Positions 3,001 through 6,000 of a stretch of 9,522 nucleotides of DNA are shown in pieces. Position 1 is the stretch's first letter, and each line of letters opens with the position of its first letter. A program made the position numbers. The stretch is from a virus (lineage: Duplodnaviria > Heunggongvirae > Uroviricota > Caudoviricetes), in IMG/VR virus record IMGVR_UViG_2531839661_000002, positions 1 to 9,522 of that record; one strand, written 5' to 3'.

Positions 3001-6000
3001 GCCGCTGGATAGATAAGCATAAGTAATCTCCTGGTGAATGTAATCCACGATCATCCGGGGAAATTAAGAACCCGCCAGTGCCCACCACTGGTGGGTGAAG
3101 GCTTAACATATCCAGGGATTCGGAACCGATAAATCCTGATAAATATCCATGAACACCAAAATCAAATACGGCCTGTCGGCTGCCGTTCTGGCGCTGATTG
3201 CCGCAGGGGCGCCTGCGCCTGATATTCTCGACCAGTTTCTGGATGAAAAAGAAGGTAACCACACCACGGCATACCGTGATGGTGCGGGTATCTGGACCAT
3301 TTTGTCGTGGTGCCACCAGGGTGGATGGCAAACCTGTCGTCCCGGGCATGAAGTTGTCGAAGAAAAAATGCGACCAGGTTAACGCCATTGAGCGTGATAA
3401 GGCGCTGGCATGGGTGGAGAAAAACATCCGGGTGCCACTGACTGAACCCCAGAAAGCGGGGATCGCGTCATTCTGCCCGTATAACATTGGCCCCGGTAAG
3501 TGTTTCCCGTCGACGTTTTATAAACGAATTAATGCAGGCGATCGCAGGGGAGCGTGTGAAGCGATTCGCTGGTGGATTAAGGACGGTGGCAGAGACTGCC
3601 GTATCCGCTCAAATAATTGCTATGGTCAGGTATCCCGTCGTGACCAGGAGAGCGCGCTGGCGTGCTGGGGTATCGACAGATAAGCAGAATATTTTGCTGA
3701 AAAATGACGTTGGCCAACGCGGACGGATAACACGAAATCCTGCGAACTGGCAAAACCTAAGTGAATAAAAGTAAAAACCCCGTTTGTTAGCAGCAGGTGG
3801 GGTTTTGTGTTTCCTGACTCCGGAAAAGTCAAAGGAGAAAGTGTGTTTGATTTTAGCAAACTGATTCGGGAGATTTGAGTGATGGCTGAAAAATTATCTA
3901 CCTGGAAGTTCATTCTTATCTGGCTGGTGTTTGTGATTATGGTCTCCGGTTATTTCATCGGTCAGATACGCTGGTGGTGAAATGAACCGCGTTCTGTGTG
4001 TGGTCATCATTGCCCTGCTGGTGGCCTGTGGTGCGCTTAGTCTGGGGCTGAATCATTACCGTGATAACGCCATCACCTACAAAGCGCAGCGCGATAAAAA
4101 AGCCAGAGAGCTGGAGCTGGCAAACGCAACCATTACTGATATGCAGGTGCGCCAGCGCGATGTTGCTGCGCTCGATGCAAAATACTCAAGGGAATTAGCT
4201 GATGCGAGAGCTGAAAATGAAACTCTGCGTGCTGATGTTGCCGCTGGTCGTAAGCGCCTGCGGATCAACGCCACCTGCCCCGGTACCGTGCGTGAAGCCA
4301 CCGGCACCTCCGGCGTGGATAATGCAACCGGCCCCCGACTGGCAGACACCGCTGAACGGGATTATTTCATCCTCAGAGAACGGTTGATGACAATGCAGAA
4401 GCAGCTGGAAGGGGCACAGGACTATATCCGCACTCAGTGCCTGAACTAAGTTTTGCGGATGCGCCGTATCGTCGCTGTATTCCCTCATTAACAGAGACCG
4501 CAGCCCGACAGGGAGACTCCTCTGCGCGAGTGTGCGGGGATAATCAAAAACGATACACACCGGGGTTTACCGCGTTAACGGAGCGCGGCGTTGTCCCCTC
4601 ATAGTCGCTGGTCCGGTGCGATGGTGGAAGAAACCGGACTACATTACAAATGATAACCATTATCATTTTGCGGGTCCTCCTGGTGGGGTGGGCCTGAACA
4701 CGGGGCGGGCGGCGCGGAAAAAGGCGCATTTTTTGATTTTTATGGCACCATCACCACCAGTGTAAATCATTGATATATATCATAATAAAAATTTTTAGTG
4801 TCGAAGTTGATTGTTTTTTGTTCATCACTGGCGTGTATTTACATAATTTTCAGGGGAAGTTATGGATCGTGAATTAAAAAATCTGCATCTGAATATTTCC
4901 CAACTGGCTGCATTATCCGGTGCTCATCGACAGACTGTCGCGGCTCGGGTAAAAAACATAAGCCCAGCCGGTGGCCATGAGAGCAATCTCAAACTGTACC
5001 GACTGACAGATATCCTTGCCGAGCTGATGAAAGCTCCTCTGCCTGTAGATAACGAGGAAATGGATCCTCATGCGCGTAAAGCATGGTACCAGTCAGAACG
5101 TGACCGACTGAAATTTGAGCAGGAAACCGGTCTGCTCGTGTCAGTCAGTGATGTCAGGCGGTCCTTTTCTGTCGTGGTGAAAGCGATAGTTCAGGTACTG
5201 GAAACCTGGCCTGACCGGCTGGAGAGGGACAGGGGGTGGACCGCATCACAACTGAATGAAGTACAGATTGTGGTTGATGAGATCCGCGACACACTGGAAA
5301 AGGCAGTCATTGACTGTTGTGATGAGGCCGATATGTGAATCAGGTGAACGAGAGCCATAGCCGCGCATCCGATATCTGGCGCGAAGTGGCCTCGCTGTTT
5401 CGCCCACCTGGCCGGTTACCAGTAGCGGAAGCCATCAGGCGTTATATGCGGGTACCACGGGGAGCCAATACTTCCGGTCCGTGGGAGTCATCGCTGACGC
5501 CCTATATGATTGACCCCATTAATACATTATCAGCCCGTGAATATGACGCGGTGGTGTTTGTGGGACCTGCGCGAACCGGGAAAACCGAAGGGCTGATTGA
5601 TGGCTGGATTGTGTACGGCATCATCTGTGATCCGGCGGATATGCTGGTGGTGCAGATGACCGAGACAAAGGCGCGTGAGCATTCCAGAACGCGTCTTTCC
5701 AGGACGTTTCGCCACAGTCCGGAGGTCAGTAAGCGCCTCAGCCCTTCCCGTAATGACAACAACGTCCACGACAAAATGTTTCTTGACGGCTCATTCCTGA
5801 AAATTGGCTGGCCGTCGATCACCGTATTTTCCTCTTCGGATTACCGTCGTGTGGCGCTGACGGATTATGACCGTTTTCCTGAGAACGTCGACGGTGAAGG
5901 GGATGCCTTCACCCTGGCCTCAAAGCGTACCACCACCTTTATGTCCTCGGGGATGACCCTGGTCGAAAGTTCGCCCGGGCGGGATATCACTGACACCAAA

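Follow-up and report, generated by a model that had tools for sequence, protein, structure and literature searches.

The window analysed here, the whole 9,522-nucleotide stretch of the IMG/VR virus record IMGVR_UViG_2531839661_000002 (positions 1 to 9,522), corresponds to the late region of a P21/H-19B-type lambdoid prophage of Escherichia coli, similar to the Shiga toxin (Stx) phages. Between the end of the endolysin gene R at 3683 and the start of the i-spanin gene Rz at 3982 there is a spacer of 298 bp that contains a small membrane-protein gene preceded by two hairpins. An earlier reading of the sequence alone (the sequence-only reading) had described this place as an unexpected spacer of about 300 bp with a terminator-like hairpin and an open reading frame (ORF) for a 32-amino-acid (aa) transmembrane peptide coupled to Rz. 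Both the length and the hairpin (3774-3806 in the terminator scan) were confirmed. The spacer can hardly be called unexpected, since more than 200 phage records share it at an identity of 90% or above, among them those of H-19B, CP-1639 and many Stx1a, Stx2a and Stx2c phages. Of 5426 complete E. coli genomes, 2066 have the whole spacer or a part of it, and 871 E. coli genomes have it complete. The partial matches in E. coli genomes covered only positions 1-129 or 1-156 of the query. The first part of the spacer (3684-3763, plus strand) is specific to the lambdoid R-Rz slot and is common to E. coli prophages that have other small genes or the antirepressor gene ant there; it does not belong to the mobile unit described below.

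The 32-aa ORF (plus strand, 3882-3980 in the ORF list, starting at Met14 in a frame open from 3879) is what is left of a 45-codon gene of the family PHROG 6632 located at 3843-3980 on the plus strand. This gene starts with a GTG at 3843, five nucleotides after the Shine-Dalgarno (SD) sequence AAGGAG (3832-3837), and ends with the stop codon at 3978-3980, but in the window codon 12 is a TGA (3876-3878). Translation from the GTG gives VFDFSKLIREI, the stop, and then VMAEKLSTWKF and so on up to a final RWW. In CP-1639 the same frame is annotated as a 45-aa "putative bacteriophage protein", and codon 12 is CGA (Arg) there as well as in H-19B, Rac-SA53 and others. It was also CGA in all 80 IMG/VR loci found with the family profile, although these are the best-scoring matches and the sample is therefore biased toward intact copies. 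The nonsense allele is present in Stx2_499 too. Judging from the homologues, the window ORF is a nonsense-truncated (R12 to TGA) copy of a conserved phage membrane-peptide gene, and this copy is probably non-functional or makes the short form only. Thus, the peptide proposed from the sequence alone belongs to a real and conserved single-pass gene, but its extent had been underestimated. It had also been supposed that ORF callers would miss it. Actually, the Prokaryotic Genome Annotation Pipeline (PGAP) leaves the ORF unannotated in many genomes, but 258 contigs have an entry for the 32-aa protein, and the 45-aa form is recorded on more than 1000, the 45-aa forms on thousands, all described as hypothetical or phage protein. 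One other E. coli prophage slot carries a 45-aa member of the family that PGAP left unannotated.

The 45-aa frame is unbroken in CP-1639, H-19B, Rac-SA53, SPN3UB, SEN34 and 12 species-level genomes. Once repaired, the window sequence matches PHROG 6632, a catalogued phage family without assigned function, along its whole length (1-45/45, E 1.4e-28), and the family is also matched by the SPN3UB and SEN34 homologues (E 4e-23 and 4e-24) and by more distant ones (E 1e-14 and 3e-16). In the window itself the family frame is not intact and just residues 14-45 stay open. Homologues were collected by tblastn, a scan of species-representative genomes and an exhaustive profile search, and were counted in 12 genera, with representatives in Escherichia, Salmonella, Citrobacter, Trabulsiella, Edwardsiella, Yersinia, Izhakiella, Sodalis, Brenneria, Symbiopectobacterium, Serratia, Providencia and Dryocola. 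Beyond the close 45-aa family, distant relatives of 44-49 aa were found, and the profile search produced 41 clusters at 50% identity, all of them of 32-86 aa. Searches of Pfam, NCBIfam, PADLOC and PDB sequences with the peptide gave no meaningful match, and a full-text literature search for the peptide sequence and for phrog_6632 returned no paper. Among 12 diverged copies the pairwise ratio of nonsynonymous to synonymous substitution rates (dN/dS) was 0.04-0.38, with dS mostly above 1, which shows the 45-codon gene to be under purifying selection and the feature to be more than a product of chance.

These data bear directly on the idea that the ORF is a frame that arose by chance, or the scar of an antirepressor-gene deletion, in a spacer without function. 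The broken frame of a decaying prophage would fit it, and ant does occupy the same slot in many related prophages, for example in Sp6, 9, 10, 12 and 15 of strain Sakai, where it is accompanied by a 48-aa ORF. However, the frame is intact and under purifying selection across many genera and contexts and matches PHROG 6632, while the slot variants that carry ant lack hairpin 1 and the ORF altogether, with no remnants of either. The sequence-only reading had pointed to conservation of the frame in related prophages as the check to be made, and there it is clearly conserved. The conservation of the frame, its contexts and the dN/dS values already refute the chance or scar explanation, to which we leave practically no probability.

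The AlphaFold2 model of the 45-aa protein (mean predicted local distance difference test score, pLDDT, 83.5) has a helix at residues 4-17, a break at 18-19 and a second helix at 20-44. Residues 23-42 are uniformly hydrophobic as read from the sequence, so that model and sequence agree with the single transmembrane helix suggested before. The N-terminal helix is heptad-like, amphipathic and of net positive charge, and is followed by the 20-residue hydrophobic helix and a three-residue RWW tail. These properties suggest an inner-membrane peptide with the N-terminus inside, anchored by its tail through one transmembrane helix.

The gene does not travel alone. The unit formed by the hairpin, the SD stem-loop and the ORF (about 3764-3980 of the window, some 215 bp) recurs in prophages of the Enterobacterales in at least seven contexts. 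The similarity at the DNA level between the window and Rac-SA53 is limited to 3768-3980, that is from the hairpin through the stop codon. The unit is found between endolysin and Rz in E. coli and SPN3UB (with a signal-arrest-release, SAR, lysozyme), Citrobacter and Edwardsiella, with endolysins of three families; between the baseplate spike gene V and the wedge gene W in Rac-SA53, SEN34, Yersinia, Serratia and Dryocola; 3' of baseplate J/I-like genes in Izhakiella, of a tail fibre gene in Sodalis and of the gene for a 965-aa protein in Brenneria and Symbiopectobacterium; and alone in accessory regions beside ParE/RelB, HicAB or PrlF/YhaV modules. Given these contexts, the unit is a mobile mini-cassette rather than what an antirepressor deletion left behind. 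The comparison of the sequences shows the region around 3764-3980 of the window to be one copy of this mini-cassette of prophage late operons.

The contexts also bear on whether the peptide is dedicated to lysis, as a timing or spanin-accessory protein co-translated with Rz that would act together with the spanins or with the SAR endolysin and pinholin, hairpin 1 being then simply the terminator of R. Lysis cassettes of E. coli, Salmonella, Citrobacter and Edwardsiella have the gene directly before Rz, with 1-6 nt between stop and start. In the window a single base separates the TGA from the ATG of Rz (TGAaATG), a junction that had been noticed at first; the junction is TAAcATG in SPN3UB and TGAcATG in Citrobacter, and the form TGAAATGAAC was present in 79 of the 80 loci. 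Furthermore, the same slot of E. coli prophages can be occupied by other small single-transmembrane ORFs (phrog_4493, 1115, 3246 and 4906), several of which end in IRWW before Rz. On the other hand, the same cassette appears between V and W, after tail-fibre or baseplate genes and alone by toxin-antitoxin (TA) modules, and at least five of its contexts have no spanin gene nearby, so that linkage to Rz/Rz1 is not obligate. The nonsense allele persists in records of Stx2a phages whose lysis genes are otherwise annotated as intact and, to our knowledge, lambda and many other phages do without the cassette. We therefore regard a specific spanin accessory as unlikely. Translational coupling to Rz, the other part of the original proposal, is plausible in lambdoid hosts, where the junction is kept, but it does not define the family.

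Several observations on the slot and the junction can be added. In other E. coli prophages up to four ORFs of PHROGs 4493, 1115, 3246 and 4906 are arranged in tandem, and several of these alternative ORFs end in AIRWW directly before the Rz ATG. Some E. coli slots retain hairpins 1 and 2 with the ORF swapped. The codons for the C-terminal RWW plus the stop (CGN TGG TGG TGA) form an SD-like sequence GGTGGTGA (3976-3984 in the window) that precedes the next gene, be it Rz in lambdoid phages or W in Rac-SA53 and Yersinia, and such a role for the following gene may contribute to the conservation of these codons.

Hairpins 1 and 2 precede the ORF in every context, including those of the most distant homologues, with the 32-aa forms of Serratia and Dryocola as the exception. 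In hairpin 1, which can form on both strands, a GC-rich stem-loop (3774-3806) has an A-rich flank on its left (3764-3773) and a T-run on its right (3803-3816); the terminator scan gave the stem-loop 15 pairs and found TTTTGTGTTTCC after it. In the 17 loci compared, 92% of the cells were paired, with compensatory changes in 6 of 13 pairs, and the covariation score was 0.271 against 0.116 in shuffled controls (none of 500 reached the observed value), controls slid along the alignment scoring much lower. The plus-strand fold was the more stable one in 15 of the 17 loci (by 3 kcal/mol on average, with 22 G·U pairs against 8), and the minus strand still folds in the same comparison. This bias indicates that an RNA structure of the sense strand has certainly been selected and, by its architecture, hairpin 1 is an intrinsic terminator or insulator of the sense strand. 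Being two-sided, it could by inference also terminate the antisense RNA predicted below.

Hairpin 2 (3810-3838, plus strand; UUUCCU-GACU-loop-AGUC-AA-AGGAGA in the fold of the window) pairs the strong SD sequence (AAGGAG, 3832-3837) with a U/C tract. Its inner stems differ among homologues, with at least five kinds (for example CCUUG/CAAGG, CGUUA/UAACG, CCUUCUG/CAGAAGG and CCUAU/AUAGG), and since their arms do not line up in the alignment no single consensus structure could be scored. The start codon of the gene is nearly always GTG or TTG. Taken with the weak start codon and the partly hidden SD, the terminator suggests insulated, low-level expression. A promoter scan of the window gave no promoter-like site between hairpin 1 and the ORF, and the positions of the loop and leader able to hold a sense -10 vary between loci. 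A sense promoter inside the ORF, with TTGCGA as -35, was rejected since no -10 follows it. The resemblance of the 3' arm of hairpin 1 to codons 5-10 was seen in the SPN3UB group only and was judged coincidental.

On the opposite strand, codons 3-6 of the gene contain a predicted extended -10 promoter, TGCTAAAAT (3850-3858, minus strand), reading TG-C-TAAAAT. All 17 loci, distant homologues included, have the minus-strand motif TGCTANNAT in the same register, and it is kept even in the two distant homologues in which the amino acids have changed there (TGCTAGAAT and TGCTAAGAT). Given the peptide and the codon usage of E. coli, the chance of finding the motif would be 3-16% per lineage. Codons 3-12 and 18 show practically no synonymous variation, while the C-terminal half of the gene uses all synonymous codons freely: D3 is GAT and S5 AGC in 12 of 12 copies, K6 is AAA in 11 of 12 and codon 4 always NTT; further on, R9 invariably has NGG, E10 has GAG (11 of 11) and R12 has CGA (12 of 12). 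Hairpin 1 lies some 40-75 nt downstream of the minus-strand extended -10 in the 17 loci, and on this strand it is followed by UUUUUACUUUUAUU in the window and by UUUCGCUUUU in most loci. The minus-strand folds of the 17 loci delimit a predicted cis-antisense RNA of about 77 nt (3764-3843, minus strand), whose 5' end would be able to pair with the start codon and the SD; a small stem-loop comes next, then the terminator hairpin and finally a U-tail. The antisense model accounts for two facts that otherwise have no explanation, the conservation of the A-rich flank 5' of hairpin 1 and the left boundary of the cassette homology, which falls at this flank. From these signals we infer that a cis-antisense RNA of about 77 nt, with the layout of a small RNA (sRNA), would be made from the promoter in codons 3-6. 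The CGA to TGA mutation of the window also changes the putative -35 of this promoter (3873-3878) from TCGAAT to TCAAAT.

A number of points weigh against this interpretation. The putative -35 of the antisense promoter is poor (TCGAAT or TCGCAA), and hairpin 1 is better on the sense strand, so that nothing in the data demands its use by the minus strand. A function of the sense strand, as initiation region or as the target of an sRNA, could instead explain the frozen synonymous sites. Occlusion of the SD amounted to 0.66 against 0.51 in shuffled controls, a modest effect in a crude, per-sequence test that sometimes picked the wrong AAGG. The 32-aa forms of Serratia and Dryocola abut V directly, without hairpins or antisense promoter, which indicates that the peptide does not always need an antitoxin. 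The cassette has no sense promoter, unlike classical type I TA loci. No transcript, transcription start site or Hfq cross-linking and immunoprecipitation (CLIP) signal was found in support of the antisense RNA, the Sakai prophages examined being devoid of the cassette, and an Rfam scan of both strands of the whole window at E<=1 gave no family.

In that scan no covariance model of the IsrK, AgvB/AsxR or STnc families matched the window, and several known RNAs were discarded as equivalents. The anti-sRNAs AgvB/AsxR sit downstream of and antisense to the stx/moron region and not at R-Rz; the Pas sRNAs adjoin the holin/lysozyme operon, are a different element and gave no Rfam match; and the coordinates and strand of STnc1380 and STnc2080 of Gifsy-1 do not fit the lysis region, according to an estimated coordinate offset. 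In the Sakai data of Hfq cross-linking and analysis of cDNA (CRAC; Tree 2014, Table S2), EcOnc10, 11 and 12 are located about 75-120 nt downstream of Rz and EcOnc33 is antisense within the esterase gene. Since Sp6, 9, 10, 12 and 15 of Sakai carry ant and the 48-aa ORF, this dataset is uninformative for the cassette. EcOnc11, 12 and 10 (NC_002695 1946819-1946867, 1779522-1779569 and 2234239-2234287) are strong peaks on the strand opposite to Rz, at the 3' side of a YlcI/YnfO-like gene, and the equivalent region of the window would be about 4450-4760. Finally, a promoter-like site on the minus strand of the window (3965-3936) was rejected: the codons under it (I32-M33) are not conserved, and the scan gave as many hits as chance would.

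A second in-frame start is suggested by Met14, conserved without exception in the close family and almost without exception in distant members. An SD-like GGGAG lies ahead of it in the window (3867-3871). In the family (A/C)GGGAG is found 9-10 nt upstream of Met14, with the codons of R9-E10 always NGG GAG; where residues 9-10 differ GGAG or GGGG is kept, and distant homologues have AAGGAG or GAGGTGA. Natural 32-aa forms exist in Serratia. The evidence is suggestive at most because Met14 is also a core position of the heptad, but a second product initiated there appears possible from the sequence. If so, the R12-to-stop allele of the window would be one that makes the short isoform only, and not a null. 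Lambda S105/S107 and S21 are known dual-start genes for holin and antiholin, with in-frame starts 2-3 codons apart. Like them, the cassette gene can be part of a lysis cassette and encodes a membrane protein with two possible in-frame starts (GTG1 and Met14). Unlike them, it has a single transmembrane helix, only 45 aa and starts 13 codons apart. The protein does not qualify as a holin or antiholin, given the lack of any Pfam or NCBIfam match, the single helix and the three-residue C-terminus, where holins typically have two or more transmembrane domains (classes I and II) or a large periplasmic domain (class III). The holin of this lysis cassette is the P21-type gene at 1935-2150.

We have also considered that the cassette could be a classical moron, coding for a lysogenic-conversion or superinfection-exclusion protein expressed from the prophage that blocks DNA entry or alters the envelope, as HK97 gp15 does. 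The lambda genes lom and bor occupy the same kind of site. Here the extra DNA is found between genes that are adjacent in related phages (R/Rz, V/W and others), in tail as well as in lysis modules, and its transfer among unrelated phages is clearly horizontal; a parallel is HK97 gp15, a small inner-membrane protein located between conserved late genes and also spread horizontally (PMC3594210). However, morons in the sense of Juhala and Hendrix are expressed in the prophage from a sigma-70 promoter of their own and have a terminator downstream (PMC3594210). The cassette has its terminator upstream and no sigma-70 promoter between hairpin 1 and the ORF, which ends 1-15 nt before the next gene. 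In addition, the partly occluded SD, the GTG start and the conserved predicted antisense promoter aimed at the start suggest repression in lysogens and not expression, and PADLOC gave no match. A classical moron seems to us decidedly improbable.

The architecture of the cassette appears closest to type I TA loci and to the IS200 tnpA/art200 pair. The left end of IS200 has a bidirectional terminator, a stem-loop that sequesters the SD and the antisense RNA art200 (PMC4513863). The order of elements is alike in the cassette, with a two-sided rho-independent terminator against incoming transcription, a stem-loop over a near-consensus SD and an antisense sRNA (here a predicted one) over the 5' untranslated region and first codons. 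In IS200 this combination holds expression very low, and the same may be proposed for the cassette. The two are not homologous, as the cassette encodes a 45-aa membrane peptide instead of a transposase and has no transposon ends. Among type I systems, hokW-sokW of the Stx2 prophage Sp5 is a TA pair that aids phage release (PMC8621323). The cassette resembles it in having a small hydrophobic inner-membrane peptide in an Stx-type prophage and a predicted RNA complementary to the translation-initiation region, and by analogy a parallel role in helping lysis after induction would be plausible. It differs in lacking any similarity to Hok, an evident toxin promoter and a long structured toxin mRNA, and in that the gene is within the late operon, behind a terminator. 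Thus, the type I toxin-like peptide, one of the possibilities offered by the sequence-only reading, is what fits the architecture best, with its predicted antisense promoter, its two-sided terminator and a membrane peptide below about 60 aa, but the independent promoter expected of a toxin is missing.

Other prophage RNAs offer partial parallels. In isrK-orf45-anrP of Gifsy-1, expression involves read-through of a terminator, an occluded ribosome binding site and translational coupling (PMC4825925), and there, as in the cassette, a 45-codon ORF of a lambdoid late region is found behind a terminator, with its ribosome binding site paired and coupled to the gene downstream; the Gifsy-1 terminator is that of an sRNA, and the pairing keeps orf45 translationally silent. 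That orf45 be the same ORF was rejected, as it has two AUG starts 12 nt apart and the amino acids are not conserved. Moreover, it is downstream of Q and not of R, and its regulator is an sRNA of the sense strand acting in trans. STnc6030 is an example of an antisense RNA from the late region of a prophage (PMC7067206).

Putting these elements together, the explanation that we favour, by a modest measure of confidence, is that of a mobile, insulated membrane-peptide cassette with an antisense RNA and a late membrane function that aids lysis. Hairpin 1 on the sense strand would shield the gene from upstream transcription, and the SD stem-loop and the GTG start would hold translation low, which means that the peptide would be made mainly on read-through by terminator-resistant (Q-modified) or abundant late transcription. 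The minus-strand promoter in codons 3-6 would start an RNA at about the complement of the GTG (~3843) that would run over start codon, SD and hairpin 2 to end at hairpin 1. By analogy to type I TA systems or to IS200 tnpA/art200, this RNA might silence leaky expression of the peptide in lysogens. Our best guess for the peptide, with hokW-sokW of Sp5 as a model, is a late function that might damage or prime the membrane and so assist lysis, while in lambdoid phages the ribosomes translating it would pass on to Rz. A more ambitious version, which we put forward only tentatively and do not consider probable as a whole, is that of an undescribed and very widespread family of antisense-guarded membrane-peptide cassettes hopping among late operons. 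Its 45-aa and 32-aa isoforms (from GTG1 and Met14) might tune membrane damage at lysis in the way of toxin and antitoxin or holin and antiholin, with the R-Rz slot as a general landing pad. If this were true, the family would number thousands of prophages of E. coli and Salmonella among its carriers, Stx phages included.

As to the surroundings of this copy, the host prophage is decaying or defective, with R frameshifted and the gene for the terminase large subunit (terL) interrupted. R (3149-3683, plus strand), which encodes a P21-like endolysin of the SAR type and forms the upstream border of the slot, is a pseudogene broken into ORFs 3149-3382 and 3198-3683 of the ORF list. It differs in length from the intact R of Stx2_499 (535 versus 534 nt, with one gap) by a 1-bp insertion near 3300, and its split indicates that the prophage is probably lysis-defective. 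The insertion falls within a short patch of clustered substitutions. Rz (3982-4449, plus strand; PF03245, E 2.7e-50) is the downstream border and contains the o-spanin gene Rz1 as an embedded 61-aa ORF (4202-4387, plus strand) with the lipobox LVVSAC. Further upstream are the C-terminal part of a SASA-type esterase (18-1241) and a P21-type holin (1935-2150, with a match to PF04971). Between holin and R there is a 199-aa ORF on the minus strand (2182-2781) without Pfam match; Stx2_499 has a different ORF annotated there, on the plus strand, and the 199-aa ORF may be a moron-like insertion. Downstream of Rz are the terminase small subunit (4862-5338) and terL (5335-6342), the latter interrupted beyond the ATPase domain, where homology to Stx2_499 stops at 6344. 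The region 3' of the broken terL carries a tyrosine integrase (6504-7619), a 74-aa ORF (7735-7959) and a Bro-N protein (8019-8600), and it seems that an integrative element, possibly a satellite or an island of the phage-inducible chromosomal island (PICI) type, has been inserted into terL.

The gene family was already catalogued as PHROG 6632 or simply as "hypothetical protein". What appears to be new here is the modular structure of the cassette, the promiscuity of its contexts and the embedded antisense promoter that suggests control of the type I TA kind. The lambdoid R-Rz junction emerges as a hot spot of small single-transmembrane proteins (PHROGs 6632, 4493, 1115, 3246 and 4906) that are inconsistently annotated. 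The peptide gene itself is found in the lysis region of many Shiga toxin phages and of Gifsy-like and SPN3UB-like prophages of Salmonella, and our search found no literature on it. Should both the antisense RNA predicted here and the activity on the membrane prove true, this would be a new phage-borne family similar to type I TA systems and a compact example of a promoter encoded in synonymous codon positions, and the cassette could affect the timing of lysis and hence the release of phage and toxin.

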